DNA from: an uncultured Candidatus Saccharibacteria bacterium
GTDB lineage: Bacteria > Patescibacteriota > Minisyncoccia > Phycocordibacterales > CAIZLB01
Direction: 5' to 3'
NCBI GenBank assembly: GCA_964620475.1
Contig: CAZUJN010000003.1
Coordinates: forward strand, 5,647-69,646
DNA length: 64,000 nt
How positions within the stretch are numbered: the stretch's first letter is position 1; each line of letters starts with the position of its first letter. Both the position numbers and the translations under genes were made by a program. The notes beneath the pieces are model-generated. The model was given only the letters and a program-made list of their open reading frames with translations, was not told where the DNA came from and searched no databases. Of this stretch, positions 15,222-33,060 are shown one piece after another.

Positions 15222-16062
15222 ACATTGTTAATAAATATTGATCTATAAATTTTTGATCAAGATTATAAAAATATATTCCATCTTGATGAAGTTGTGTAGC
15301 TAAAGGTACACCAACGAAACGCCAATGCCACGGTTCATAAGCATAATAAGTATTGCCTTTTGGATATGACAATACAAATCCATATTTATATGCATTATTT
15401 TTCAACCATTCAAATTCTCTGGTTGTATCAAATTTATAATTAAGATTTGGCATAGATTTTGTAGCCAAATCAACAGTAGTACCAAGTTGATGCTCTGAAT
15501 AACCCTGCTCTGCTACAAAACGATTTGCAGTATTTGCTCCATAAGTCATCTTATTTTGAGTCTTAAGGGTTGCCTGTGTGCCAAAAGATCTATAAGCAGA
15601 AACAACAAGAGGTTCGACGCCTTCTTTTCTAGCATCATCTATCATTGAAGTTAAAAATGGTAATACATTTGTATGTAATTTATACTCAACATTTGTATTT
15701 AAAATATAATCGGAAGGTATTTTTTCGACACTAACAGGAGAATAATTTTCATTTAAAAAATAAACTTTGGAATATTTTTTTAGAAGTTGAGGATCTGATT
15801 TTGCAAGTTTGTCTAGATTTATAACTTTATCTTGTAAATCTTTATTCTTTTTACTTTCTTCAGCTATCACTCTTGATAATGTTGAATATAAATCATTAAA
15901 AGATTCTCTCGATGTGTTTGTTATATCATTTAATGATTTTATACTTTCCTCATATAAAGAAAGTTTTCTGGATAAAATTCCAGCACGATATTCATTAATG
16001 AAGATGTATGAGATAAGAAGCAACAAGATGATTATAGAAATAATTATTCTAGATTTTTTCAT
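15211..16062 (-). CDS. D-alanyl-D-alanine carboxypeptidase, VanY/M15B family
   Basis: SEHQLGTTVDLA (SxHxxGxAxD) and EPWHWRF motifs; N-terminal TM. Confidence 0.75.
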   Translation of the reverse strand: MKKSRIIISIIILLLLISYIFINEYRAGILSRKLSLYEESIKSLNDITNTSRESFNDLYSTLSRVIAEESKKNKDLQDKVINLDKLAKSDPQLLKKYSKVYFLNENYSPVSVEKIPSDYILNTNVEYKLHTNVLPFLTSMIDDARKEGVEPLVVSAYRSFGTQATLKTQNKMTYGANTANRFVAEQGYSEHQLGTTVDLATKSMPNLNYKFDTTREFEWLKNNAYKYGFVLSYPKGNTYYAYEPWHWRFVGVPLATQLHQDGIYFYNLDQKFIDQYLLTMFDK

Positions 16063-19823: not shown

Positions 19824-20204
19824 TTACCTATATTTTTTATAACCTTTTTTACTCATACAATTCATAACCTCTGTATTAAAACTTTGAGAATTTGTTTCTA
19901 TCAAACATTCTTCATTAGCAGTCATTCTTTTTTGCTCGGAATAATTTCCAGAAATCCATAGAATTAGTAACAAAAGAGCAAAAGCAATTAAACCTATAAA
20001 AAAATGCTTTGTACTTTTAAAAGAAAACCAAAGGATGTTTAAGATTAAATAAATTATGAGTAGTATAATTATTTGTATAGATAAAGTAAGGTTTCCAAGT
20101 ACCATATTTTGCAGACCTAATAGGTAAAGTATTGTTAGTGACAATACAATATAAGTAATTAGTTTTGATTTTGTAAAATAAAAAAATTGTTTTATTAAAT
20201 TCAT
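19824..20204 (-). CDS. Hypothetical membrane protein (3 TM)
   Basis: Hydrophobic helices; C-terminal basic tail. Confidence 0.5.
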   Translation of the reverse strand: MNLIKQFFYFTKSKLITYIVLSLTILYLLGLQNMVLGNLTLSIQIIILLIIYLILNILWFSFKSTKHFFIGLIAFALLLLILWISGNYSEQKRMTANEECLIETNSQSFNTEVMNCMSKKGYKKYR

Positions 20205-20514
20205 GGTGATAATTATACCACAACTATTAAGCCTTGATGTTAGCCGTGTTAGGGATTTTTCACATTTCTCATTTTAAATATTTTTTATACATATCAATAT
20301 AGCCATATAAACAAAGGTTCATATACACTTTACTCATAAAACATCAAAATCATTAATCGGAGCATTTGTATGTTGCTGATAAAATTTAATCGTACCCTTG
20401 AAAAGGGGTATAAAAAAATTGTCTAAACAATAATAAATTAACAATAAGCAAAAAAACAAAAACATGGAAAACAAAAATAAAACATAAATAAAAAAAATAT
20501 AAACAAACAAAATT

Positions 20515-21801
20515 ATGAGTAAAAAATTAAGCTGGACAACAACCCAAAAAACAATAAACGAATTAATCCCTCAAAAGATTAATCCCAGAACAATTACAGA
20601 AAAACAAATTTCCGATCTTACTAGAAGCTTGAAGAAGTATAACCTAGTAGAGATACCTGCTATAGACTTAGACGGGACAATACTGGCTGGTCACCAAAGG
20701 ATCAAAGTGATGAAGATACTCGGACGAGGTGATGAACTTATAGATGTCCGCATGCCAAATCGTAAATTAACAGAGCAGGAGTCAAATGAATACCTAATAG
20801 CTTCGAACAAACTCGGCGGAGACTGGGATTATGATCTGTTAAAGACATTTGAATTCGACACTCTTGAGTTTGCAGGATTCGACAAGATAGAACTTACTAA
20901 TATGTGGGATGGAGATAAGAAAGCTGAAGATGATGAATTTATCATAGAGAAAGAATTGAAAGAAATAAAGGTTCCAAAAACAAAGATTGGGGATATTATT
21001 AAACTTGGCAAGCATAAGATTATTTGTGGCGATTCCACTAAACAAGAAACACTCACAAGGCTTTTGGGTAATGAGAAGGTGTCAATGATTTATTCGGATC
21101 CAGTGTATAACATAAACGTGAACTATGGTGGTGGTATTGGAGGTCAACAAAATTATGGTGGTGATGTAAACGACTCAAGAACATTTGATGAGTACAGGAA
21201 GTTTTTAAAAAACAGTATCGAGTGTGCGTTGGCGGTATCCAAACAGCATACTCATATATTTTACTGGTGCGACCAGATATATATCGGAGTGGTGCAAGAT
21301 ATTTATAGATCATTAGGTATAGAGAATAAAAGAGTATGTCTATGGATAAAGAATAATCAAAACCCTGTCCCTACTGTAGCGTTTAATAAAGTGTATGAAC
21401 CAGTGGTTTATGGAGTTCGGGGAAAACCACATCTTACAAAAACCATCCAGAATCTAAATGAGGTGATGAACAAAGAACTAACCACAGGTAACAACCTACT
21501 GGAAGAAATAAATGACATATGGATAGCAAAAAGGCTTTCCTCAAAAGATTATGAACATGCAACATCTAAACCAATAGAACTTCATGAAAAAGCTATAAGA
21601 AGATGTAGTAAGATGGGTGATATTATCCTAGATAGTTTTCTTGGCTCTGGAAGCACATTGATTGCAGGAGAAGCTCTGGGTCGAAGAGTTTATGGGTGTG
21701 AACTTGAGCCAGTATTTTGTGATCTTATAATCCGTCGATACGAAAAACTTACTGGCACTAAAGCAGTGATAGAACACCATGAAGAAAAACAAGGTCTATA
21801 A
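20515..21801 (+). CDS. ParB-like nuclease domain fused to an N4/N6 DNA methyltransferase (phage-type orphan methylase)
   Basis: N-terminal ParB/Srx fold (LAGHQRIKVMK). DPVYNI lies at the position of the catalytic DPPY; C-terminal SAM motif DSFLGSGST (beta-class order). Confidence 0.8.
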   Translation: MSKKLSWTTTQKTINELIPQKINPRTITEKQISDLTRSLKKYNLVEIPAIDLDGTILAGHQRIKVMKILGRGDELIDVRMPNRKLTEQESNEYLIASNKLGGDWDYDLLKTFEFDTLEFAGFDKIELTNMWDGDKKAEDDEFIIEKELKEIKVPKTKIGDIIKLGKHKIICGDSTKQETLTRLLGNEKVSMIYSDPVYNINVNYGGGIGGQQNYGGDVNDSRTFDEYRKFLKNSIECALAVSKQHTHIFYWCDQIYIGVVQDIYRSLGIENKRVCLWIKNNQNPVPTVAFNKVYEPVVYGVRGKPHLTKTIQNLNEVMNKELTTGNNLLEEINDIWIAKRLSSKDYEHATSKPIELHEKAIRRCSKMGDIILDSFLGSGSTLIAGEALGRRVYGCELEPVFCDLIIRRYEKLTGTKAVIEHHEEKQGL

Positions 21802-22177
21802 AAATTTCTTAGAGGAATTAGAGAGAACACCTATAATTTCTATTGCCTGTGAAAAATCTAACATATCCAGAAATACCTTTTATCGTTGGATGAAGGAAGA
21901 TAAAAATTTTTCACTACTAGCAAATGAATCACTGAAAAGAGGTATTGATCTAGTTAACGACGTGGCTGAAAGTAATATCCTTAACGGTATCAAAAATCAG
22001 GATAGAAAATCAACCGAGTATTGGCTTAGTCATAGACACCCTGTATACAAAAAACAGAATTATTATCATAAGGAAGATACAAGAGCGTTGGATAAAAAAA
22101 ACCATGAACAAAAAATAGAAGAAGCAAGGCGAAGAATGACTGAGTTTCAAGATAAATGGTTTAAGAAAGGTAAATGA
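21779..22177 (+). CDS. Terminase small subunit-like / homeodomain-like HTH protein
   Basis: ISRNTFYRWMKEDKNF HTH region; overlaps the methylase gene by 23 nt. Confidence 0.5.
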   Translation: MKKNKVYKNFLEELERTPIISIACEKSNISRNTFYRWMKEDKNFSLLANESLKRGIDLVNDVAESNILNGIKNQDRKSTEYWLSHRHPVYKKQNYYHKEDTRALDKKNHEQKIEEARRRMTEFQDKWFKKGK

Positions 22178-22178
22178 T

Positions 22179-22637
22179 TTACGACCTAACCTTATCTTTC
22201 AATTCATCAATTCTCTTCTTTACATTATATGGAGATTCGATATTTTTGAGTACAATCTCTAAACTACCAGATCCTGCTGTGTTTATAGCAATAGCACCTG
22301 AATGGCTTATCACTCTATCAAAAAAAGGTTCTCTAACATGAACATCGGTTATTTTCTGATAATCAATACTTGTTGTATTTGTAGATAGCCAACCTTTGTG
22401 TATTAAAATTCTTTTGTTAGTAAGTGCATAAACATTTGCAACTTTTTGGTAAAAACGAAAATTAAATAGAGCAATAAGAAATACAATTATTCCCATACCG
22501 AATGCTGGTAATAAAAATACACTCACTATACCCCAGATTATTAATTGTACTTTTAAGTATCTTCTACCTAGAGAAAACTCCAATTCTACTTTTTCGTCTG
22601 CATTTAGGGTTTTATCCCAGATTTTTTCATTTGTCAT
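22179..22637 (-). CDS. Bacterial PH-domain (bPH_2, YdbS/YdbT-like) membrane protein
   Basis: Two TMs followed by ALTNKRILIHKGWLSTNTTSIDYQKITDVHVREPFFDR. Confidence 0.6.
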   Translation of the reverse strand: MTNEKIWDKTLNADEKVELEFSLGRRYLKVQLIIWGIVSVFLLPAFGMGIIVFLIALFNFRFYQKVANVYALTNKRILIHKGWLSTNTTSIDYQKITDVHVREPFFDRVISHSGAIAINTAGSGSLEIVLKNIESPYNVKKRIDELKDKVRS

Positions 22638-22989
22638 AATTTTGCTTGATCGGCTTTAAAATTATTTGATAATAATGATGTGTTTTCTGTTGTATACAAA
22701 AAGCCCATCACGGGTAAGAGCCGAAGCTCTTCGTACCAGTTTCCCGATACGGCGATCAAGCAAAACCCCATGACGGGTTCTTTACACTTGATCGACTTTA
22801 GACCATATCCTTTAAAGTTAATTAAAGGGGTTAGGTCACAATTTGGTTGTAATTCCATAATACTTTATTTCAAAGTATTAGTCTATATTATATCGCTGAT
22901 TATAGCTTTTGCTAAGCTATTACGACCATGTAATAAAACCGCTGTTTTGCATAGCTATGCACCTGTAATGGTTGCGACACAATTGATAT

Positions 22990-24261
22990 ATGCAAGACAC
23001 AGAACTTAAATATTGCTTATACGCACGTAAATCAACCGAGGGGGATGAAAAACAAGCTTTATCAATAGACTCTCAGATAAAAGAAATGTTACAGATTGCA
23101 GAACGTGAAAACCTAAAAATTATCGAGATCAGAAAAGAATCACACTCAGCGAAGGAATCTAGTCAAAGACCAGTATTTGAAGAAATTGTTAAAGATATAG
23201 ATGGTGGTATTTTTAACTCAATAATAACTTGGGCACCTGATAGACTTTCTCGTAATGCAGGGGACCTTGGAAAATTAGTAGATAGAATGGATCAAAAAAA
23301 ATTAATTCAGATTAAAACTTTTGGACAAAATTTCACAAACTCTCCAAGTGATAAATTCCTATTAATGATTTTATGTTCTCAAGCAAAGCTTGAAAATGAT
23401 AATAAGAGTATCAATGTGAAGCGAGGTATGAGAACTCGTTGTGAGATGGGTTTATGGCCAGCACAACCACCCACAGGCTATAGAAAAGTAAATGATAGAA
23501 CTGCTAAGTGTGAAGTAGAGATTGATCCAGATAGATACAACACCATAAGACAAATATTTGAAAAAATTGCATATGAAAAGTGGAGCGTGTCTAAAGTTCA
23601 CGCATGGTTAAGATATGATATTAATTTCAAAACACAACGTGGATATAACTTAAGTATTGGAAATGTTTTTAAAATAATTAATAACACTTTTTACTATGGT
23701 AGATTTGAATTTCCTCAAGGAAGTGGTATTTGGTATGAAGGTATACATAAACCAATAATAACAAAAGAATTATTTGACGAGACACGAAGTGCTGTGAAAT
23801 CTCAAGTTATAAAATCACAAGGTAAAGAATTTGCTTTTACTAGAATTATGAAGTGTGGGGTGTGCGGATCTGGAATTACCGCTGATGAGAAGTTTAAGAA
23901 GATAAAGCATGGTGGAGTTAACAGATATGTATATTACAGATGCACAAAAGCAAAAGATAGGAATTGTAAAAATCCTGCTTTAAACGAAACTGAATTAATA
24001 GAATCTTTTATTAGTATGATTAATAAACTTAATATCAACAAAGTTAAACTTACAACAAAACTTGATATCGAGATACAAAAGTTCAAGAAGTTGCAAGCAA
24101 TGTTTTTAGGTAGAAAGAAAACAGAGAAAATAGAATCTATAGATCTTAAGGATTATATGAAATTTGTACTCAAGGAAGGCTCTATTTTAGAGCAAAGGGC
24201 TGTGTTGGAGTGTATCGAAAGTGAATTATTTATGAATAATAAAAAGATAAGAACTGATTAA
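22990..24261 (+). CDS. Large serine recombinase (resolvase/integrase family with zinc ribbon)
   Basis: YARKSTEGDEKQALSIDSQ catalytic region, DRLSRN, CGVCGSG...YYRC zinc ribbon, C-terminal coiled coil. Confidence 0.85.
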   Translation: MQDTELKYCLYARKSTEGDEKQALSIDSQIKEMLQIAERENLKIIEIRKESHSAKESSQRPVFEEIVKDIDGGIFNSIITWAPDRLSRNAGDLGKLVDRMDQKKLIQIKTFGQNFTNSPSDKFLLMILCSQAKLENDNKSINVKRGMRTRCEMGLWPAQPPTGYRKVNDRTAKCEVEIDPDRYNTIRQIFEKIAYEKWSVSKVHAWLRYDINFKTQRGYNLSIGNVFKIINNTFYYGRFEFPQGSGIWYEGIHKPIITKELFDETRSAVKSQVIKSQGKEFAFTRIMKCGVCGSGITADEKFKKIKHGGVNRYVYYRCTKAKDRNCKNPALNETELIESFISMINKLNINKVKLTTKLDIEIQKFKKLQAMFLGRKKTEKIESIDLKDYMKFVLKEGSILEQRAVLECIESELFMNNKKIRTD

Positions 24262-24262
24262 C

Positions 24263-26482
24263 TTAATTAATACCAAAGGTATTATAATGATCTATATCGA
24301 CACTCTTAATTACATCAAAATAATTTTTAATTCTCTGTTTACAGCCCTGTAAGACTGCAATATCATACTTTTCAAGACCTAAAAATTCATGTGATCCATG
24401 ATTAATGAAACGATTCATAACCTTCTCTTCTTGACCTACTTCCTGTACTATAATATCTTTTTGTGCAGGGTCTGTTTTTTTTAGTCTAATATCTTTATAG
24501 TTTGTATACAGTTGTTTTAGTTTGCTTTTTAAATCTCCATGACCATACTTAAAATGTAGAAAAGTTTCAATTGATCGACGAAGTAAATTGGCTGCCAAAA
24601 TTGCATCATCTAAACTCGTACTATCTTTTATATCATTAAGTTTAGTAATCGCATACAAATAGTCCGATCTATAGTTTTTAAGACTTTCATCAAGTATTTT
24701 TATTGATGACCCGGCATTATTCATACTTATTTGATAAAAGTTGACTAAATCATATTTAATTGTTCCGTCAGGCTTTTTATAATCCTGAAGTAGGTGTCCA
24801 AAAAAATCTAAATTGTGTGTAAAAATAAAATATTGCCGATTATCATCCTGCTCAATCTCACCAGACAGAATAGCATATACTTGGAAAAGTGAATCAGAAT
24901 CTAGACTGGATACAGGATCATCAATAACAATAATTGCATCATTATCTAATTTATCATCTTCATCATTAATTGAAAGTAAAAAATAAGCAAGCGCTAAGAA
25001 ATTTCTTTCACCTTCACTCAAATTGTCTAAACTACACTTTACGCTGTCTCTTTTTAAAACGTATCCAACTTCTTCAGTGGAATCATCAAGCTCTATTTTT
25101 TTATATGGAAAAGTTGAAGCCAACAATCTATTTATTCGATCAGCTGGAATTTGAACATTTTTTGCTTCTTTTTTAAGATCTTTTAATTCTTGTTCAAGTT
25201 TTTTTATTTCATTGCTCTTATCTAATCTACTTTTTAAGCAATCTGTGTAGACTTTCTTTTTATCAAGATATTTTAAATATTCAATGGCAACATAATGAGT
25301 TTCAACGGACCATGCTGTTTTATTGACATCAAAGACCTCTTCATCAATAAAGAGATTATTAAACTCACAAGAATCTATCCCTTTAATTTTATTTTCTTTT
25401 TTGATTTTTATTTTTTCTTGTAAAGTGATAAAAAAAGTTTTCAAACTCTTTTTCTCTGAAGTGTAAAAAAATTCGCAGGAAATAATCTCATTTAAAGCAT
25501 CTTCAGTGCTTTTACTTAAAATGTCTAATATATTATTTAATTCAATAACATCATTAGAAAAATTTTTTAATAATTCATCTCTGTTTTGAATTTTCGAACC
25601 ACAAAAAAGACAGGTATCGAGCTTCTCGTCCTCATTATAAAGTTTATGTATATCTACACCCTTTCTAACCCAATCTTCTTCTTTACCTCCGTCAGGATAA
25701 CTACTCATTCTCATGGATTTTTCATAAACTGGAGTAAATTTTAAATATTTATTTATTTTTTCTAGATTTTCAATTACCCAATAATTCCATTTCTTGAGAA
25801 TTTTATATTCTCTTTCTTTTTCAGATAAATTTGAAAGTGTCGCTAATAGTTTTTTTAATTTATCGTCGTCTTTTATAAAGTTTTCTAATTGATTACCTCT
25901 ATTAATCTGTTTTGACAGCCAGTCCACCCTTACCTCAAAAGAACTTTTATCATATCCTGTGAAATTTCCAACTCCTCCAGTAGCAGGATCTTTTTTAATA
26001 TGACCAATACCAGGTAGCAATTTAATGAATTTAGAAGCATTTTGAGATATATCTTCATACTCATTCTTGCACTGAGGAAGTTTAAGAAGCTCGTCTCTAG
26101 CAATATCTAATTCTTTTTGTTTGTTAGAGAAATCAACCTCTGTGGCACCTATTGCAACGACATATTTTAAATGAGTTTGATCTATAATCTTTTTTATATA
26201 ATCTTCATTAAAAACACGAATTTTACTTTCATAACCAGAAAGTTCGTCTTGTTTTTTTGCACCCGTATCAAATCCTACAGTAAAATTTGCTCCACTTATT
26301 TTACTTCCACTCTCAATTATCCCTTTCTCATAAGATTGTAGAATTCTAGATATAATCGTTTTTCCACACCCGTTCCAACCTAATAAAATATTTACTTTAC
26401 TATGAAATTCTGGAATAGTTGTGTCCCATTGAAAGTTTTTAAATGTACCGAAATTAATTGATTGTATCTTTTTAATTTTCAT
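24263..26482 (-). CDS. RloC-like ABC-type ATPase with zinc-hook coiled-coil insertion and putative C-terminal HEPN-like anticodon-nuclease domain
   Basis: Walker A GWNGCGKT; ABC signature LSEGERNFLALAYFL; Walker B IVIDDPVSSLD. The coiled-coil insert has CLFCG (CxxC); the C-terminus has RRSIETFLH (Rx6H). It overlaps the upstream methyltransferase gene by 11 nt. Confidence 0.55.
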   Translation of the reverse strand: MKIKKIQSINFGTFKNFQWDTTIPEFHSKVNILLGWNGCGKTIISRILQSYEKGIIESGSKISGANFTVGFDTGAKKQDELSGYESKIRVFNEDYIKKIIDQTHLKYVVAIGATEVDFSNKQKELDIARDELLKLPQCKNEYEDISQNASKFIKLLPGIGHIKKDPATGGVGNFTGYDKSSFEVRVDWLSKQINRGNQLENFIKDDDKLKKLLATLSNLSEKEREYKILKKWNYWVIENLEKINKYLKFTPVYEKSMRMSSYPDGGKEEDWVRKGVDIHKLYNEDEKLDTCLFCGSKIQNRDELLKNFSNDVIELNNILDILSKSTEDALNEIISCEFFYTSEKKSLKTFFITLQEKIKIKKENKIKGIDSCEFNNLFIDEEVFDVNKTAWSVETHYVAIEYLKYLDKKKVYTDCLKSRLDKSNEIKKLEQELKDLKKEAKNVQIPADRINRLLASTFPYKKIELDDSTEEVGYVLKRDSVKCSLDNLSEGERNFLALAYFLLSINDEDDKLDNDAIIVIDDPVSSLDSDSLFQVYAILSGEIEQDDNRQYFIFTHNLDFFGHLLQDYKKPDGTIKYDLVNFYQISMNNAGSSIKILDESLKNYRSDYLYAITKLNDIKDSTSLDDAILAANLLRRSIETFLHFKYGHGDLKSKLKQLYTNYKDIRLKKTDPAQKDIIVQEVGQEEKVMNRFINHGSHEFLGLEKYDIAVLQGCKQRIKNYFDVIKSVDIDHYNTFGIN

Positions 26483-27461
26483 GACTCTTCAAATCTTTCA
26501 TTATTTTTTTTGCTAAAAAGTGTGCAAGGTTAACAGGTACAGCATTACCGATCATCTTATAGCCATTTGCCACATCATTATATTTAAAAATAAATGTATC
26601 AGGAAATGTCTGAACTCTTGCACATTCACGGACAGATAAACGACGATATAAATGTTCTTTTCCAGGAACAAATATTCTTTTATTTTGTTCAATAAATTTC
26701 ATTTTTGGAGCTTGTGGGTGGAGTGGAGCATGACGACCACCAGCCTGAATGGTAAAGGAAGGTTCATCCCAAGATCTAACACGATTTCTTGACATATATA
26801 TAGTCGAAAAACCACCAATCATGTACTCATGATTTGGAATTTTCAATTTATCACCATTAGTTTTATTTTTATCTTTTGCAGGTTTTGCTAATCGTAAATC
26901 GTAAATAGCATCCTTTAGAACAGGTTTATGCTTTTGAGGCTCAGGAAATTCAAATTTCTTTTTTAATTTTTTATGATATCCGACAATAATTACACGAAGT
27001 CTATCTTCAGGAACACCGTAATCATTTGCGTTTAATAATTTCCAAGAAATCACATACCCCGCACTCTCAAATGATTTAATTATGTTATTAAATGCATCTG
27101 CATGTTTTGGATGAAGTATACCTGAAACATTTTCTGCTAAAAAGAATTTTGGTTGTTTTTCTTTTAATAATCTAACATAATCAAAAAACAACTGACCTCT
27201 CTTATCATCTATACCACGACCAGCCCCGGCTTCACTCCAACTCTGACATGGTGGACCTCCAATAATTCCATCTACATCGGGTATATCTGAGTGGGATACG
27301 TTAACAATACTTCGTCGATCAAGTTTTGTTTTAGGAAAATTATGTTCAAAAGTCTCCCAAATAGTTGAATCATATTCATTAGCCCATACAACATGAAAAC
27401 CAGCCTTTTCAAAACCTAGATCGAGTCCTCCTGCACCAGTGAATAATGAAGCTATTTTCAT
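26472..27461 (-). CDS. C5-cytosine DNA methyltransferase
   Basis: Motif I FTGAGGLDLGF, motif IV GGPPCQSWS, motif VI ENV. Confidence 0.9.
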   Translation of the reverse strand: MKIASLFTGAGGLDLGFEKAGFHVVWANEYDSTIWETFEHNFPKTKLDRRSIVNVSHSDIPDVDGIIGGPPCQSWSEAGAGRGIDDKRGQLFFDYVRLLKEKQPKFFLAENVSGILHPKHADAFNNIIKSFESAGYVISWKLLNANDYGVPEDRLRVIIVGYHKKLKKKFEFPEPQKHKPVLKDAIYDLRLAKPAKDKNKTNGDKLKIPNHEYMIGGFSTIYMSRNRVRSWDEPSFTIQAGGRHAPLHPQAPKMKFIEQNKRIFVPGKEHLYRRLSVRECARVQTFPDTFIFKYNDVANGYKMIGNAVPVNLAHFLAKKIMKDLKSHEN

Positions 27462-27465
27462 AAAT

Positions 27466-28446
27466 TTAATCTTTACTTATATTTAGTGTATTTTTAAATA
27501 ATGTTTTTGGAGCTTTTATAAGGTTTATATCAAACTTTAAAGAAGACTCCACCCTAGAACTTGCATTGTGTATCCTAAATGAAAGTACCCAGTCATTGTT
27601 CATTGTAACAATAGCAGTTGTAATACTATCATTTTTAAAATCAACATCTAAAATTTCTGTTGGGAGCGGAACTTTAGGTGTTTTGTATTTTGGTTGAATA
27701 TCTTTAAAAGGAAGATTTAGTGTTCCATTAATATTATAAGCATGTATCTCAATTGAGTTTTTACCTTTTATAACTTTATAAAAATCTTTATTTCCAACTA
27801 AATACGCGACTAGATTAGATGCAACTTTTACAGGATCTTTTTCATATAGATCTTTTAATTCTTTTATAAATGCTTTCAAAATTGGAGTATATACAGAAGT
27901 GTGGTAGTCACCTAGTTCACTCCATTTTTTCTTAGCACCACTTTCTTTTCTAATATTTTCAAGATTTTGAAAAATAGGTGTTATTGTATTAAAATATTCT
28001 TTAGAATTTTTTATTCCTAACCACTTATCTCCAAAATCTATATTTGAAGAGAGCCTAGAGTGTTTAACTGCTTTATGATTATTTTTTGCAGATACCCCAA
28101 TTTCCCATTTTTGGAGGAGACGAATAGCTATGACATCACGGACATCTCCAGATTTACCATGATTATCTGATAAGATTTCAAGTTGTAAAATATCATCCTT
28201 ACCGATATCATTTGAAAGTCTAGGCTCTATATCAATTAAGAAATTTACAGCAAAACTTGCCGACAATAAATATTCACTTTTTTCACTATTTGTAACACTG
28301 TCAAAACAACTTTTAGCAACACTAAAAGCAGAATTTGTAATAATCTCTATATTTGTCTTATCCTTAAGCTTCTCTTCAAAGGAAATAAGAAGAGCGTATT
28401 CGAAGGATTTTCCTGTTGTCATCTGTTTTGAATTTGTACTTGCCAT
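27466..28446 (-). CDS. Type II restriction endonuclease, apparently HaeIII/NgoPII-like family (GGCC-type); partner of the m5C methylase
   Basis: Stops 4 nt before the methyltransferase start. Pattern GDVRDVIAIR...WEIGVSAKNNHKAVKHSRLS...KWSEL...FYKVI...LSFRIHNAS...SLKFDI recalled as HaeIII-family; this needs a database check. Confidence 0.5.
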   Translation of the reverse strand: MASTNSKQMTTGKSFEYALLISFEEKLKDKTNIEIITNSAFSVAKSCFDSVTNSEKSEYLLSASFAVNFLIDIEPRLSNDIGKDDILQLEILSDNHGKSGDVRDVIAIRLLQKWEIGVSAKNNHKAVKHSRLSSNIDFGDKWLGIKNSKEYFNTITPIFQNLENIRKESGAKKKWSELGDYHTSVYTPILKAFIKELKDLYEKDPVKVASNLVAYLVGNKDFYKVIKGKNSIEIHAYNINGTLNLPFKDIQPKYKTPKVPLPTEILDVDFKNDSITTAIVTMNNDWVLSFRIHNASSRVESSLKFDINLIKAPKTLFKNTLNISKD

Positions 28447-28546
28447 AATTATAACAGTGATTATATCACATTAATTTATGCATAACACTGACATGAAAAA
28501 CCTTATCATTTCGACCCTTCTCGAGTGCTCGAACTAGTGCTCGACA

Positions 28547-28621
28547 TGGTGACCCCACGGAGAGTCGAACTCCGGTTAACAGATTGAGAACCTGCTGTCC
28601 TAACCACTAGACGATGGGGCC
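28547..28621 (-). tRNA. tRNA-Glu (anticodon CUC), CCA encoded
   Basis: GGCCCCAUCGUCUAGUGGUUAGGAC...; anticodon loop UUCUCAA; T-arm CGGAGUUCGACUCUCCG; acceptor pairs; 3' CCA. Confidence 0.75.
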
Positions 28622-28665
28622 TATACACAAGAATATATCACATTATTTTATAAATAAAAACCCCT

Positions 28666-29349
28666 TTATTTCCCCCAACTCTCTGCCACCTCATCCAAAT
28701 CATCAGCTCTAAAAGTATCATTATAAACTTTATGCAGCGGTGGTCGCATCAAATAAACCCTTCTATTTTTAGTATCAAATAAAACATTGTCATATAGATA
28801 ACCAACTGATTTTGGACCGACCACAACAGGCTTAAAACCAGAAACTTCTTCTATTTGCTGTGATAATTTTGATACTGTGTCTGTATATAAATAGCTAACC
28901 CCATCATCAGTATTACCACCAACTAAGATTATATCTATACTCCCATCTACACTTCTAGATTTTAGTTCCTCTAAACGTCTTTTTATATCATTATCAAAAT
29001 TTTTATTTTTATTTATAGTGAAACCGTCCTGATGAGTTAAAAACGATATATTGTTACCGGTATCTTTATCAGCACCAACAGCTATCACACTAGTACAACT
29101 ATATAATTCTGTTGTATATTTATTATCTTGACTTATATTTGATATAACATAACCTCTTTCATCATCTTGAAGAGAACTTCCTCCCTCAGACTCATTTTTA
29201 TAATAATCCACACGTTCTGCCATACCCATCAAAGAATCATCATAATGATCTACATCATCAACACATATCATAATAGATTCAAAACCTGAAGCTAAATGCT
29301 CAGGTTTTAAATTATTGATTCTTTTTTCTATAGGGTTTGGATTTTCCAT
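28666..29349 (-). CDS. Hypothetical protein
   Basis: 227-aa ORF; no motif recognised. Confidence 0.55.
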   Translation of the reverse strand: MENPNPIEKRINNLKPEHLASGFESIMICVDDVDHYDDSLMGMAERVDYYKNESEGGSSLQDDERGYVISNISQDNKYTTELYSCTSVIAVGADKDTGNNISFLTHQDGFTINKNKNFDNDIKRRLEELKSRSVDGSIDIILVGGNTDDGVSYLYTDTVSKLSQQIEEVSGFKPVVVGPKSVGYLYDNVLFDTKNRRVYLMRPPLHKVYNDTFRADDLDEVAESWGK

Positions 29350-29350
29350 T

Positions 29351-30040
29351 TTACTTCAACAAAAACCTTAAAGTCGACACAACTCTAATCTTCTTATATT
29401 CAGGTGATCCTGGATCTTTATCTGTTATATCAAATACACCTTGATTTCCTCTTGTTACCGGACCAAGACTGGCACGAGATTCTTTAGCGAAACTTTTGGC
29501 TGTATCTTTAGCATTTTTTATACTCTCAGCCAACATCTCTGGTTTAACACTGTTTATATCTGAAAATTCAAAATTAATATTATTTTGATTTAAAGTAACA
29601 CCTCTCTTAACCAAAGTTAAAGTTTCTTTAGATGTTGATTTTACAAGATCAACTTTATTTGTATAAACAGACAATTGATTTGTCGCATTATATCTAAATG
29701 ATGCATCTTTATATGTATCTTGATAAATATTTATCGGAGCAACATTGATTTCACTATCTTCAAATCCTTTTTCCTTTAGAAAAGCTTTTATGGTGTTAAT
29801 ACTTCTTTCTGTATCAGCATATAACCCATCTATATCATTGGACTTTATATCAAAGTTGAGTGTCCATATAGCTGTATCAGCTTTAACGATCTTTTCTGAT
29901 AAACCTTTTACTTCTACATAAGCACCTTGATCAGAAAAAGATTTTGCTGAAACTAAAAATATTAAAGAGAAAAATACTATCACCGCACCTATAATGGTCG
30001 CTAATAATAATGTATTGTTGTTTTTGATTTTATCTAACAT
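29351..30040 (-). CDS. SIMPL/DUF541 family periplasmic protein
   Basis: TM/signal followed by a SIMPL-like pattern. Start moved to MLDKIKNN because the longer ORF would overlap tRNA-Thr. Confidence 0.65.
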   Translation of the reverse strand: MLDKIKNNNTLLLATIIGAVIVFFSLIFLVSAKSFSDQGAYVEVKGLSEKIVKADTAIWTLNFDIKSNDIDGLYADTERSINTIKAFLKEKGFEDSEINVAPINIYQDTYKDASFRYNATNQLSVYTNKVDLVKSTSKETLTLVKRGVTLNQNNINFEFSDINSVKPEMLAESIKNAKDTAKSFAKESRASLGPVTRGNQGVFDITDKDPGSPEYKKIRVVSTLRFLLK

Positions 30041-30064
30041 AGATATATTATACACCTCTATATG

Positions 30065-30137
30065 AGCCCCGCACAAGAATCGAACTTGCGACCTGCTCGT
30101 TACGAGTGAGCTGCTCTACCAACTGAGCTAACGGGGC
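30065..30137 (-). tRNA. tRNA-Thr (anticodon CGU)
   Basis: GCCCCGUUAGCUCAGUUGGUAGAGC...; loop CUCGUAA; T-loop UUCGAUU; one A-C mismatch at 31-39. Confidence 0.7.
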
Positions 30138-30151
30138 ATTTTCTTACAAGA

Positions 30152-30901
30152 TTATCTCATCTTATAGAAAATCTTGTCCATAAATCTAATATCAACATAA
30201 TCCAGAGCATTTAGATTTTCTTCATATTTATTCAAGAAAAAATTCATGTTTCTCATAGTCGTCGTGGCGTTATTAAGTGCCTTAATATCAAAACCATATT
30301 CTGTATTCATGGCCAACTCTTCACCATCTATCAAAACTTTCTTAATCTTATTCTTACTTAAGAATGATACAAAGTCATCTTCTATACACATATTTAAACA
30401 AGGAACTTTATCATAAAAATTCAAACTTTGAGTATTATCTTTTATACCCCAAACCGTAAACACGGCCCCAGTAAATTCAAAACTTTTTTTAAAAAGTATC
30501 CCCTCATCATCAAAGAAGAAACAATTTTGATCGCACCAAACACCGGTTGCTTTTCTGTCTTTAATCTTTATAACTATTTCTTTTTCAAAATTTTTATCTA
30601 TATAAACTTCTTCAACAGATGGATAAGTATTCAATATAAAATTTTTCAATTTCTTCTTTGATAAGAATAATATATGATCATTGGGTATGATAAACAACTG
30701 CTTCTTACTTAAAAAACTATCTATATCAGCCTTTAATTGATTAACATCCGTATGTTTAGCATTTAACACATCGACTTTTTTTATTTTCCAGACATTTGCA
30801 TATATAACCCAAAGAGTGAGAGATAAAACAACTATCGTAAATATTACAGATAGTATTTTATATAAAGTTTTTCCTTTTTTACTTGATGATTTTAACGCCA
30901 T
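30152..30901 (-). CDS. FtsQ/DivIB-like cell division protein (POTRA domain); tentative
   Basis: N-terminal TM, then an alternating hydrophobic POTRA-like pattern (IKKVDVLNAKH...VEEVYIDKNF...IKIKDRKATGVW). Confidence 0.4.
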   Translation of the reverse strand: MALKSSSKKGKTLYKILSVIFTIVVLSLTLWVIYANVWKIKKVDVLNAKHTDVNQLKADIDSFLSKKQLFIIPNDHILFLSKKKLKNFILNTYPSVEEVYIDKNFEKEIVIKIKDRKATGVWCDQNCFFFDDEGILFKKSFEFTGAVFTVWGIKDNTQSLNFYDKVPCLNMCIEDDFVSFLSKNKIKKVLIDGEELAMNTEYGFDIKALNNATTTMRNMNFFLNKYEENLNALDYVDIRFMDKIFYKMR

Positions 30902-32153
30902 TCATGTATGGAACAAGAACTTCTGGCACTATTATAGAACCATCCTCTTGTTGATTATTTTCTAATATACTAACAAGAACTCTGGGTGTAGCAATAGCTG
31001 TATTATTCAATGAGTGAGCAAATTTTAATTTACCGTCCTCATCTTTATATCGGATATTCAATCTTCTGGTTTGAAAATCATGGAAATATGAAGCTGAATG
31101 TGTCTCTCTATAAGTATTTTGACTTGGAACCCATGCTTCTATATCGTATTTCTTAACATGACCTAAACCTATATCTGCAGTACACATAAGTATAACACGA
31201 TATGGTAGATTTAGTGATTGCATTAAATCTTCTGTATTTTTCAAAAGCTCTTCATGAAAATCAACAGACAAATTATGACTAGCTTCACATAATATAACTT
31301 GTTCAAGTTTGAAAAATTCATGAACACGTATCAAGCCCTTTGTATCCTTACTATGACTTCCGGCCTCTCTACGAAAACATGGAGAAAATGCGATGATCTT
31401 TTTTGGTAATTCTGACTTATCTAGAACCTCACCAGCATAATAACTCATAGTAGCGACTTCACCTGTACCAGCAAGATAATCACCGTCCTGTGTTTTATAT
31501 AAATCATCTTCACCTTGTGGTATATATCCTGTACCTAATAAAGTCTCACGGCGAACTAGAGATGGAACTATCATCGGATTATAACCACGGTTTATAAGAA
31601 AATTCATAGTATATTGCCATAATGCAAATTCAAGTTGAGCTAAAGCACCTTTTAATATATAGCCACGGAAACCTGATATCTTCGCACCTCTTTCAAAATC
31701 AGCAATGTCTAATTTTTCACAAAGTTCTATGTGATTTTTTGGAGTAAATGAAAATTGTGGAATCTCTCCCCATGTACGAAGCTCTTGATTATCATCCTCA
31801 CTCTCACCTTCTGGAACAGACATGTCTGGAATGTTTGGAACCTGCAACATAAGTTCTTGCCAAGTTTTCATCACTTCACCTAACTCCTCCTCTTCTTTTT
31901 TTATCTCACCTTTCAAAACAGTCATCTGTTGTATCAATTCTTCTTTTTGATAATTTGATCCAAGATGTTGTGGATTTGCAATAAAAAGACTCATTTTGTT
32001 TTGCTCAGCCTTTTTGTTTTCAATACTTGTCAATAAAGTTTTTCTTTTATCATCAGCCTCTATCAAGGACTCAACTTCAAAAGAGAATCTCTTTTTTCTA
32101 GCAGCTTCCTTTATAAGATCTTTATGCTCTCTGATGAATTTGATATCTAACAT
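30879..32153 (-). CDS. serS: Seryl-tRNA synthetase
   Basis: N-terminal coiled-coil arm; class II motifs (FRREAGS, GLGHVKKYDIEAWVP). Confidence 0.9.
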   Translation of the reverse strand: MLDIKFIREHKDLIKEAARKKRFSFEVESLIEADDKRKTLLTSIENKKAEQNKMSLFIANPQHLGSNYQKEELIQQMTVLKGEIKKEEEELGEVMKTWQELMLQVPNIPDMSVPEGESEDDNQELRTWGEIPQFSFTPKNHIELCEKLDIADFERGAKISGFRGYILKGALAQLEFALWQYTMNFLINRGYNPMIVPSLVRRETLLGTGYIPQGEDDLYKTQDGDYLAGTGEVATMSYYAGEVLDKSELPKKIIAFSPCFRREAGSHSKDTKGLIRVHEFFKLEQVILCEASHNLSVDFHEELLKNTEDLMQSLNLPYRVILMCTADIGLGHVKKYDIEAWVPSQNTYRETHSASYFHDFQTRRLNIRYKDEDGKLKFAHSLNNTAIATPRVLVSILENNQQEDGSIIVPEVLVPYMNGVKIIK

Positions 32154-32237
32154 GATTTTATTCTTTATATTTTCTTTATGGTTTTTTTATATAGTCTTTA
32201 TGAGAATATGATAACAGAAAAGCTATGATATTTCTAT

Positions 32238-32939
32238 ATGAATACAATAGAAAATATAGAACAATTAAATGATTTAATCAACAACATACCCGATAAGCCC
32301 TCTAGATTATTTTATGAAGGCAATATCGATTTACTAAAAGATAAACACATATTCGTATGTATAGTTGGTCCCAGAAAGGCCTCCCCTTATGGCATACAAG
32401 TCACAGAGTATATTATAGAGTTCTTAAAAGATTTTAACGTTGTTACAGTTTCAGGAGCTGCATATGGTATAGATGGATTAGTTCACACCTTATCTATTAA
32501 AAACAATATTCCAACCATTGCTATACCTGGCAGTGGTATAAGTGATGATTATTTTTATCCTAGAGCACATCTTGATCTCAAACATGAGATTTTAGATCAT
32601 GGCGGACTTATCATAAATGAATTCGAGCCTGACACCCGTTCAAGTATATGGACTTTTCCTGTTAGAAATAGATTGATGGCCGGCATGTCACATATCACTA
32701 TAGTCATAGAAGCTGAAGAAAAATCAGGCACGCTTATAACAGCTAACTTAGCGACGGATTATAATCGCGAAGTTTTAGCTATACCTGGAAATATATTCTC
32801 TAGAAACTCTCAGGGTACAAATAGTTTGATAGATAAAGGCGCAAAAGTTTTTGTAAATATAGAAACATTGAGAGAAATGATTATGCAGCTTGGGGTTGTG
32901 TACGGGGTTGACGTGGGTAAAAAAGATGTTAATATTTAA
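32238..32939 (+). CDS. dprA: DNA processing protein DprA (Rossmann domain only)
   Basis: GAAYGIDG, RNRLMAGMS, EKSGTLITANLATDYNREVLAIPG, GTNSLIDKGA. Confidence 0.8.
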   Translation: MNTIENIEQLNDLINNIPDKPSRLFYEGNIDLLKDKHIFVCIVGPRKASPYGIQVTEYIIEFLKDFNVVTVSGAAYGIDGLVHTLSIKNNIPTIAIPGSGISDDYFYPRAHLDLKHEILDHGGLIINEFEPDTRSSIWTFPVRNRLMAGMSHITIVIEAEEKSGTLITANLATDYNREVLAIPGNIFSRNSQGTNSLIDKGAKVFVNIETLREMIMQLGVVYGVDVGKKDVNI

Positions 32940-32940
32940 C

Positions 32941-33060
32941 ATGCAGGCCATGATAGGTCCTGTGGTTCACTGCTGAAAGTCCTCGGTCGTGGCTGGTAAC
33001 CACGACCGAGGCATGCAGACCAGATTCCGTTTTTATACGGGTCTTTTTTATTTATATATT
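32941..33060 (+). repeat. GC-rich hairpin element A (12-bp perfect stem), doubling as the dprA terminator
   Basis: AAAGUCCUCGGUCGUGG-cugguaa-CCACGACCGAGGC, then a weaker hairpin plus T6. Shares the AAAGTCCTCGG..CCGAGGC frame with element B. Confidence 0.45.

Follow-up and report, generated by a model that had tools for sequence, protein, structure and literature searches.

An RloC-family gene at the end of a HaeIII-type restriction-modification operon in a Candidatus Saccharibacteria bacterium

What does an RloC-like ATPase do as the last gene of a type II restriction-modification (R-M) operon? RloC has been studied so far as a mostly stand-alone sensor of DNA breaks and tRNase, in Geobacillus kaustophilus (GkaRloC) and Acinetobacter baylyi (AbaRloC) (Davidov & Kaufmann 2008; Klaiman et al. 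2012, 2014). Among published RloC genes, linkage to R-M genes occurs "rarely" (8/72), always with type I or III systems. The window analyzed here, 64,000 nucleotides of contig CAZUJN010000003.1 from an uncultured Candidatus Saccharibacteria bacterium, holds such a gene behind a HaeIII-type R-M pair. In our main reading, to which we assign a probability of roughly 0.6, a HaeIII-type R-M system and a terminal RloC travel on a mobile island, and RloC would be a hook-silenced, DNA-end-activated tRNase for which restriction-made ends are a plausible trigger.

The operon and its restriction-modification enzymes

ORF calling places three genes on the minus strand at 24263-28446, in the order restriction endonuclease (REase), methyltransferase (MTase) and ABC ATPase.

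27466..28446, minus strand: HaeIII-family type II REase, 326 aa, first gene of the operon (PF09556 RE_HaeIII)
26472..27461, minus strand: M.HaeIII-like C5-cytosine MTase, 329 aa (PF00145 and 1dct matches)
24263..26482, minus strand: RloC-family protein, 739 aa, whose Rad50/SMC-like ABC ATPase carries a CxxC insert and is fused to a putative HEPN-type domain at the C-terminus
28459..28485, minus strand: promoter-like element with an extended -10 (TGTGATATAAT), ~15 nt 5' of the REase ATG

The REase and MTase genes are 4 nt apart (27462-27465, read in the sequence), and the MTase and ATPase genes share 11 nt (26472-26482), with the ATPase start lying over the MTase stop. The sequence-only reading had described this three-gene arrangement, gap and overlap included, and the ORF coordinates and the sequence agree with it exactly. 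The ATPase start is confirmed by its homologues, which all begin at a common N-terminal MK[IV]KKI.

The REase matches PF09556 RE_HaeIII over the entire profile (2.7e-96, positions 1-298 of 298; Pfam) and PADLOC REase_II at 4.6e-99; a PDB sequence search with it returned no match. The MTase matches PF00145 DNA_methylase (3.8e-101; Pfam), and its residues 1-321 match crystallised M.HaeIII (1dct, 6.8e-126). Because its overall identity to that enzyme is 59%, rising to 63% within the variable region that recognizes the target, the MTase and the R-M operon are probably GGCC-specific. The locus differs from HaeIII R-M in the extra, overlapping RloC-like gene at the operon end, and its specificity is assigned by homology. 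GGCC depletion was sought across the 64,000-nt window, where 70 sites against 57 expected indicate no avoidance, and on the island described below, where 1 site against 3.2-5.0 expected is not significant.

A similar copy of the promoter-like element lies at 28631-28657, 5' of a tRNA-Glu gene, and the pair forms a direct repeat (D4) of 85% identity. A consensus promoter and terminator scan of 22800-28800 found 31 promoter-like sites against 31.5 in shuffles, and its lone terminator-like match sits within the REase gene. Since the promoter scan matches the shuffles, it neither supports nor opposes an internal promoter. On this weak evidence, the element and its copy are candidate promoter elements only.

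Family assignment of the 739-aa protein

The sequence features that define RloC are all present in the 739-aa protein, which confirms it, at the level of sequence, as a member of that family.

26360..26383, minus strand: Walker A / P-loop LGWNGCGK (residues 34-41), from conservation and translation
25601..25612, minus strand: CLFC (C291-x2-C294), putative zinc hook in the insert, from conservation and the structure model
24917..25021, minus strand: ABC signature LSEGE (488-492) to Walker B IIVIDD (517-522)
24815-24817, minus strand: H-loop H556, invariant in homologues
24266..24685, minus strand: putative HEPN-type nuclease domain (residues ~600-739), from triad conservation
24566-24580, minus strand: R635-x3-E639
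24389-24412, minus strand: R691-x6-H698, including S697-H698
24287-24289, minus strand: H732

Conservation was judged over the 63 homologues, which reach down to ~20% identity; an additional profile search brought nine new sequences only. In Walker A, G35, N37 and K41 are invariant and G38 is nearly so, and S489, D521, D522, P523 and H556 are invariant. The ABC-ATPase elements of RloC (GWNGCGKT, LSEGE, IIVIDDPVSSLD and H556) vary little or not at all throughout the set. The Walker A, CLFC, signature, Walker B and RRSIE motifs quoted in the sequence-only reading were all found at their translated positions.

Between Walker A and the signature motif lies an insert of ~300 aa in which C291 and C294 are both invariant, down to the ~20% identical homologues. 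In the full-length structure model (pLDDT 84.7), long helices at 206-248 and 386-441 flank an apex that bears the CxxC. The ATPase domain is predicted to be split, as in RloC, by a coiled-coil insert ending in a putative zinc-binding hook. The first Cys is residue 291 here and in GkaRloC, whose zinc-hook Cys is numbered C291 (PMC3458546).

In the C-terminal domain, each named residue of R635-x3-E639-x58-S697-H698 is at least 90% conserved, invariant or nearly so, among the 63 homologues. This sequence pattern corresponds to the Arg-x3-Glu...(Ser)His triad of RloC, with a spacer of 58 residues that is 6 beyond the published range of 36-52. RRSIETFLH had previously been read as the Rx4-6H HEPN motif of a ~190-aa domain. 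That reading was dropped because H643 is not conserved (Y/F/Q/E/G/A in homologues), and H643 was rejected as the catalytic histidine; the conserved HEPN-type motif is R691-x6-H698, and the domain is nearer 140 aa. Its predicted fold may be HEPN-like. Foldseek of the C-domain model against the PDB gave helical-bundle matches only, none significant, and the best matches of the full-length model are cohesin, condensin/SMC, Rad50, LmuB and RecN heads. Both results would suit a protein that is no nuclease, namely an SMC/Rad50/RecN-like ATPase for DNA repair or handling whose helical tail is non-catalytic, a reading that we consider extremely improbable.

HMM searches with the protein gave a strong match to PF13166 AAA_13 (2e-72, cut-off 36 bits; Pfam). 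Its best stretch spans residues 376-698 and therefore covers the nuclease triad. PADLOC PDC-S06, a candidate label without a described mechanism, is the strongest full-length profile match (2.7e-74, best stretch at profile positions 407-733 of 740) and appears to correspond to the RloC/AAA_13 family. PADLOC LmuB matches at 6.4e-16, and PADLOC PrrC gives a partial match (4.8e-8, profile 94-299 of 372) that is far weaker than those to PDC-S06 and AAA_13. Homologues 58-77% identical carry the JGI label 'wobble nucleotide-excising tRNase'. PDB sequence searches, including that with the ATPase, were empty and so yielded no solved structure of RloC or PrrC for comparison. Against plasmids, tblastn gave only ~26%-identical 'AAA family ATPase' matches on large enterobacterial plasmids.

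The likeness to characterized RloC, which is set by features and profiles and not by percent identity, extends to size class (739 aa here, 658-897 published). The protein differs from characterized RloC in that its gene closes a type II R-M operon, overlapping the gene before it, and in its CPR-like bacterial host. With PrrC of EcoprrI it shares an ABC ATPase, a predicted C-terminal HEPN-type anticodon nuclease with an R-x3-E...H triad, and a gene within an R-M locus, where PrrC is a second-line abortive defence. However, PrrC is ~340-416 aa long and lacks the coiled-coil/zinc-hook insert; its gene always sits in a type Ic hsd locus, and the R-M protein keeps PrrC silent. Here, the protein has 739 aa and the ~300-aa insert, its neighbors encode a HaeIII-type REase and an m5C MTase, and no hsd genes were found among the ORFs called in 20000-33000 (~13 kb around the cassette). 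Thus, of the RloC/PrrC architecture proposed from the letters, the RloC part stands (ABC motifs, CxxC insert, triad), whereas membership in PrrC does not (size, insert, neighbors); judged by these sequence features, the protein is homologous to PrrC, yet not a PrrC member. Lamassu systems also deploy an SMC/Rad50-like coiled-coil ATPase in defence, LmuB is among the best structural matches, and LmuACB complexes of solved structure bind duplex DNA. In the multi-subunit Lamassu the effector, LmuA, is a protein of its own, whereas here a HEPN RNase effector would be fused to the sensor, with tRNA as the expected target. The family is already known, and the novel part is the operon context.

Partners of the relatives and the mobile island

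An RloC-like gene in a 3'-terminal, overlapping position recurs behind several unrelated R-M operons. One locus (L098) has the same cassette with an identical 4-nt gap and 11-nt overlap, and its REase, MTase and RloC are 86%, 83% and 79% identical to those here. The RloC-like proteins encoded after HaeIII (L098), DpnII (L096) and TdeIII (L097) operons are mutually 89-93% identical, and a DpnII-linked one (L082) is 83-84% identical to these. The four genes share a conserved start, ATGAAAATTAAAAAGATACAATC, and the sequence 5' of it differs. Among relatives 76-93% identical, the gene overlaps the one before it and closes type II operons of three unrelated types (HaeIII, DpnII, TdeIII). R-M-linked relatives 43-60% identical follow DpnII-type (L094), type I (L090, L092) and type III (L091) genes and an Eco57I/MmeI-like, type IIG-like methylase (L093). 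The RloC-like gene is on the same strand as, and directly downstream of, R-M genes in the 11 R-M-linked loci whose upstream side is informative, which amount to about 8 distinct cassettes given several near-duplicates. In 6 junctions read or listed, its start abuts (L090, 2-nt gap) or overlaps the preceding gene. It closes the type II and type III operons and also, in L090, a type I operon; in L092 it lies inside the hsd locus, and in L093 a helicase gene follows it. In type II loci a methyltransferase gene is always immediately 5', though the families of upstream methyltransferases vary (m5C, N6_N4, type I HsdM). Stand-alone copies also occur (L084-L087), both among the relatives 43-60% identical and at 63-64% identity.

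The surroundings of the cassette are best explained as an island of ~8 kb next to tRNA-Glu, with a serine recombinase as its mobilising enzyme.

28547..28621, minus strand: tRNA-Glu(CTC), immediately 5' of the cassette (ARAGORN, Rfam)
22990..24261, plus strand: large serine recombinase, 423 aa (Resolvase, Recombinase and Zn_ribbon_recom domains)
22716..22837, minus strand: LOOT RNA (Rfam RF03000), full-length, 77 bits (gathering score 46.4)
22179-22637, minus strand: bacterial PH-domain protein (Pfam)
21779-22177, plus strand: 132-aa ORF
20515-21801, plus strand: N6/N4 DNA methyltransferase, extended at the N-terminus (Pfam)

The recombinase gene is convergent with the RloC gene, with 1 nt between the stop codons, and the LOOT RNA lies 5' of it and divergent. 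Recombinase homologues (43-51% identical) lie ~3-5 kb from RloC-like genes in three loci (L001, L002, L091), each of which also has a LOOT RNA, and are adjacent in L001. The stretch 20515..22637 is the putative remainder of the island; in L001 or L002, homologues of its N6/N4 methyltransferase and 132-aa ORF adjoin the recombinase and the RloC-like gene, and the L002 counterpart of the ORF has HTH/AlpA-like matches. The tRNA-Glu(CTC) is the probable island edge or insertion site; in L098 the cassette, and in L001 the RloC gene, likewise comes directly after a tRNA. A repeat search for att sites gave short AT-rich matches only, besides the promoter-like pair D4. The far boundary is tentatively placed near 20.3-20.5 kb, where no att repeat marks it. 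AbaRloC cuts tRNA-Glu, but a role of the neighboring tRNA-Glu as an RloC substrate was rejected, because an insertion site is simpler and the tRNAs differ at other loci.

Possible coupling between restriction and the nuclease

The sequence-only reading took the ATPase-nuclease for a suicidal backup that senses R-M failure. In a guard of this PrrC style, the R-M proteins silence the nuclease by contact, and a phage anti-restriction factor that disables the REase or MTase fires it. The homologue PrrC operates so with a type Ic enzyme (PMC2610378; PMC12707154). The 11-nt overlap and the methyltransferase gene directly 5' in every type II case would favor stoichiometric co-synthesis. However, near-identical proteins (89-93%) stand behind unrelated R-M systems, 63-64% identical ones stand alone, and the upstream methyltransferases belong to different families. 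This variety argues against a guard tuned to the failure of a single R-M enzyme and fits RloC's documented internal switch, which is activated by DNA ends and has its source in the zinc-hook insert, present here. The PADLOC PrrC match is weak and partial, and in A. baylyi hsd deletions neither triggered RloC nor blocked its activation (PMC3874168). A guard is therefore unlikely.

The preferred reading draws on the characterized proteins. The GkaRloC nuclease requires ATP and linear dsDNA, the assay activator being restriction-digested lambda DNA, and the C291G hook mutant is a constitutive nuclease (PMC3458546). A. baylyi RloC is activated by a double-strand-break inducer independently of the hsd genes (PMC3874168). 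By homology to GkaRloC and AbaRloC, a tRNase activity switched by ATP, linear DNA and the hook is expected here: the zinc-hook/coiled-coil insert would keep the protein silent, linear DNA ends would bind the Rad50-like ATPase head and, with ATP hydrolysis, turn on the HEPN nuclease, and the nuclease would cut tRNA anticodon loops, leading to a translation stop and abortive infection or dormancy. From the context, the R-M linkage may serve co-transcription and co-transfer, and the linked REase, by cutting unmethylated DNA, may supply the double-strand ends. With such ends as the trigger, restriction would feed the second layer and not be guarded by it.

Alternatively, RloC could be a self-sufficient one-gene defence that shares transcription and mobilisation with the R-M operon it landed behind but has no functional interplay with it, and that answers phage-derived triggers such as host DNA degradation. 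Stand-alone copies exist, defence genes often cluster on islands, and we take the PDC-S06 suffix to be a label for single-gene candidates. In characterized hosts RloC works without linked R-M genes (PMC3874168). Yet its position, directly downstream on the same strand in the 11 loci and abutting or overlapping in 6 junctions, is too regular for chance clustering, and we find this independence rather doubtful.

Type II R-M systems are established causes of post-segregational killing. Loss of the island would dilute methylation, and residual REase breaks could fire the nuclease, reinforcing that killing and stabilising the island. The island that carries the cassette is mobile and encodes a serine recombinase, and RloC responds to double-strand breaks (PMC3458546; PMC3874168). 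Chromosome breakage by the REase is lethal already, which leaves the added benefit doubtful, and stand-alone copies would go unexplained; such an addiction role is quite improbable.

A bolder form of the preferred reading, advanced tentatively and held less likely than not, is that R-M enzymes of any DNA-cutting type serve RloC as sensors in this CPR-associated clade, giving a two-tier 'restriction-triggered abortive infection'. Sensing by the R-M enzyme would be the reason why interchangeable R-M operons have repeatedly acquired RloC as a translationally coupled last gene: ends left by restriction of incoming unmethylated DNA would turn on the Rad50-like head and, through it, the tRNase. This would reverse the PrrC logic, in which restriction failure is the signal.

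No direct phage-defence test of RloC was found in the literature, and a 2025 survey of S. thermophilus defences lists RloC as 'not tested'. The locus is not a new kind of system; what is new is RloC ending type II R-M operons on a mobile island. Near-identical RloC genes on swappable type II, I and III R-M operons are a natural experiment on the contribution of the R-M partner, one that could separate a silencing contact from DNA ends as the signal, and the compact three-gene cassette is amenable to testing in E. coli. A layered defence island with a serine recombinase and a LOOT RNA extends the sparse picture of CPR immunity.

A HaeIII-type operon ending in an RloC-family gene

The operon is composed of three minus-strand genes, whose positions agree exactly with those of the sequence-only reading.

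27466-28446, minus strand: restriction endonuclease (REase), 326 aa; Pfam RE_HaeIII, 2.7e-96, covering the whole HaeIII profile
26472-27461, minus strand: m5C methyltransferase (MTase), 329 aa; Pfam DNA_methylase, 3.8e-101
24263-26482, minus strand: ATPase, 739 aa; Pfam AAA_13 (PF13166), 2e-72

The 4-nt gap between the REase and MTase genes and the 11-nt overlap between the MTase and ATPase genes are both seen in the sequence. The ATPase start is confirmed by alignment because all homologues begin at the same MK[IV]KKI. The alignment of the MTase with the crystallised M.HaeIII (1dct; 6.8e-126) is full-length. The two share 59% identity in total and 63% within the variable target-recognition region, which makes GGCC the likely predicted specificity. 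The window as a whole shows no avoidance of GGCC (70 sites versus 57 expected). The island, the ~8-kb putative mobile unit that holds the operon (20300-28546, 8.2 kb), has 1 site versus 3.2-5.0 expected from local composition, which is suggestive of self-site avoidance by an element bearing this pair, though the depletion is not statistically significant. This sole site is at 23456, within a recombinase gene. A promoter-like pair with an extended -10 (TGTGATATAAT/TGTGATATATT) is present on the minus strand at 28459-28485 and 28631-28657 (85% identical). One copy is 5' of a tRNA-Glu gene and the other is 5' of the REase gene, ~15 nt from the ATG, so the REase mRNA may have a very short leader or none.

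The ATPase motifs quoted in the sequence-only reading all translate as given. In an alignment of 63 homologues, with identity down to about 20%, the residues that are invariant or at least 90% conserved are G35, N37, G38 and K41 of Walker A; C291 and C294; S489 and E492 of the signature motif; D521, D522 and P523 of Walker B, plus H556; and N632, R635, E639, S697 and H698 of the tail. The tail does contain an Rx6H motif of the HEPN kind, at R691-FINHGS-H698. H643 of RRSIETFLH, the histidine first chosen, was rejected as an active-site residue, with Y, F, Q, E, G or A at that position in homologues. The earlier description was largely right, with its motif assignment partly wrong.

RloC, as defined by Davidov & Kaufmann, has ABC motifs, a coiled-coil/CxxC insert and an Arg-x3-Glu-x36-52-His triad, often with a Ser directly before the His; the nuclease activity of Geobacillus kaustophilus RloC (GkaRloC) is lost on mutation of R692, E696 or H737 (PMC2610378). 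Judged by sequence, the ATPase has every RloC-defining feature: its triad, R635-x3-E639-x58-S697-H698, keeps to this pattern, though its spacer is slightly longer. Several homologues (58-77% identical) are named 'wobble nucleotide-excising tRNase' by JGI. PADLOC ranks the candidate system PDC-S06 first (2.7e-74), and its PrrC profile is matched only in part (4.8e-8). Unlike PrrC, an anticodon nuclease guarded by a type Ic R-M enzyme, the protein lacks both the PrrC size/architecture and the type Ic context. In the full-length AlphaFold model (pLDDT 84.7), long helices at 206-248 and 386-441 part the two ATPase halves, and the apex between these helices holds the CxxC. Against the PDB, Foldseek ranked the SMC heads of cohesin and condensin, Rad50, Lamassu LmuB and RecN highest (E about 1e-6). 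The sequence-only reading had named, as evidence against its own assignment, a tail with no nuclease fold together with matches to repair ATPases alone; this combination is not what was found. For the C-domain model by itself, Foldseek against the PDB gave insignificant helical-bundle hits.

Restriction-modification partners in relatives

The gene contexts of relatives are the informative part of the analysis. One relative locus, L098, has the identical layout after a tRNA, with equal gap and overlap, and identities of 86% (REase), 83% (MTase) and 79% (RloC).

Gene order in other relative loci
L082, L083, L096: HTH, Dam-like MTase, DpnII REase, N6_N4 MTase, RloC
L097, L099: HTH, TdeIII REase, D12 MTase, N6_N4 MTase, RloC
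L094: N6_N4 MTase, DpnII, small ORF, RloC
L090 (type I): HTH, HsdR, 278-aa ORF (possibly HsdS), HsdM, RloC
L092: HsdM, Fic, HsdS, RloC, RelA_SpoT, Abi_C, HsdR
L091 (type III): Mod, Res, RloC
L093: MmeI- and Eco57I-like methylases, then RloC
L084-L087: stand-alone RloC-like gene

Mutual identity is 89-93% among the RloC proteins of the HaeIII (L098), DpnII (L096) and TdeIII (L097) operons, but 79% between the two HaeIII-linked proteins (window and L098). Conservation begins at the RloC start codon (ATGAAAATTAAAAAGATACAATC) and the upstream sequence is unrelated; therefore, R-M modules have replaced one another ahead of a conserved RloC gene. At the junctions examined, the RloC gene abuts or overlaps the upstream gene. 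It is the last gene of the type II, type III and L090 operons; the exceptions are L092, where it is internal, and L093, where a helicase gene follows.

In type I contexts, Fic accompanies the RloC-like gene (L092 1860-13837; L066, another such locus), an association with Fic/Doc that Anantharaman et al. (2013) had also pointed out. The L092 hsd locus also holds RelA_SpoT and Abi_C.

Of 80 more distant relatives, drawn from species-representative genomes, some 20 are in type I hsd loci, 2 are in type III loci and 2 adjoin Eco57I-like genes. No classical type II REase/MTase pair was detected in this set, in which the Pfam scan covered about three quarters of loci; in one member, L063, the third gene upstream encodes an m5C MTase. 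A literature search found no published description of RloC in a type II operon. In a 2008 survey, 8 of 72 RloC genes were R-M-linked, all to type I or III systems (PMC2610378). Anantharaman et al. describe PrrC/RloC as 'often found in R-M operon' and say no more on linkage.

A putative serine-recombinase island beside tRNA-Glu

The operon begins about 100 nt past tRNA-Glu(CTC). At its end, 1 nt separates the RloC stop from the stop of a convergent large serine recombinase gene (window 24261-24263), a spacing with no space for terminators between the converging transcription units.

Island features and counterparts
Window 20515-22177, plus strand: 428-aa N6/N4 DNA methyltransferase and 132-aa ORF, 23-nt overlap
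Window 22716-22837, minus strand: full-length LOOT RNA (Rfam RF03000), beside the recombinase gene
L001 11728-11849; L002 6631-6761; L091 683-805: LOOT RNA
Window 28547-28621; L098 4625-4711; L001 7767-7859: tRNA genes before the cassette or RloC gene

In L001, L002 and L091, recombinase homologues (43-51% identical) and RloC-like genes are no more than about 3-5 kb apart, and in L001 they are adjacent. LOOT RNA (70-83 bits; gathering score 46.4) was found in exactly these three other loci, those with the closest recombinases, and the ORFs 3' of it are mutually unrelated; LOOT thus tracks the island or recombinase rather than any particular gene. Related islands also share an N6/N4 methyltransferase and a small HTH-like ORF with this one. 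Because these elements are shared near RloC-like genes, the RloC-like gene is cargo of a serine-recombinase island family whose members insert next to tRNAs. The putative far boundary is near 20.3-20.5 kb; a repeat search for att sites gave short AT-rich matches besides the promoter-like pair.

Homologues of the methyltransferase, whose N-terminal region of about 190 aa is without assignment, and of the 132-aa ORF occur close to the RloC-like gene of L001 or L002, and the L002 counterpart of the ORF has HTH, AlpA and terminase-small-like matches. The two genes could encode an orphan methylase and a factor for excision or regulation of the island.

Three independent loci have a tRNA directly 5' of the cassette or of the RloC gene. 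The tRNAs of L098 and L001 are probably different from tRNA-Glu because they span 87 and 93 nt versus 75 nt, and insertion adjoining tRNA genes at several sites is suggested.

L002 contains a group I intron (15658-15990, 67 bits) a few kb downstream of its RloC-like gene. Its record is labeled 'Gammaproteobacteria', yet its RloC and recombinase are most like CPR sequences, so the contig may be mis-binned.

A possible link between restriction and RloC activation

GkaRloC nuclease is off until ATP is hydrolysed with linear dsDNA present; the assay activator was restriction-digested lambda DNA, plasmid DNA worked far better in linear than in circular form, and the C291G change in the hook makes the enzyme constitutively active (PMC3458546). 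By homology, the ATPase here would have the same internal switch operated by DNA ends. Restriction of unmethylated DNA by the linked R-M system would generate double-strand ends, and these would trigger RloC. This is the most economical functional link because all partner R-M systems make double-strand ends in unmethylated DNA, and we place its probability at roughly 25-30%. The sequence-only reading had instead proposed a PrrC-like guard that senses R-M failure, which would need a silencing contact between the RloC-like protein and one R-M protein. Such a contact is less likely, since nearly identical proteins have varied R-M partners and stand-alone copies exist. Co-transcription and co-mobility alone, with no interplay between R-M and RloC, is a serious alternative to restriction as the trigger.

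The operon places a known family, RloC, in a new context: type II R-M, translationally coupled, swappable and in a CPR-like host. Its value is as a compact cassette in which the contribution of R-M linkage to RloC could be tested.
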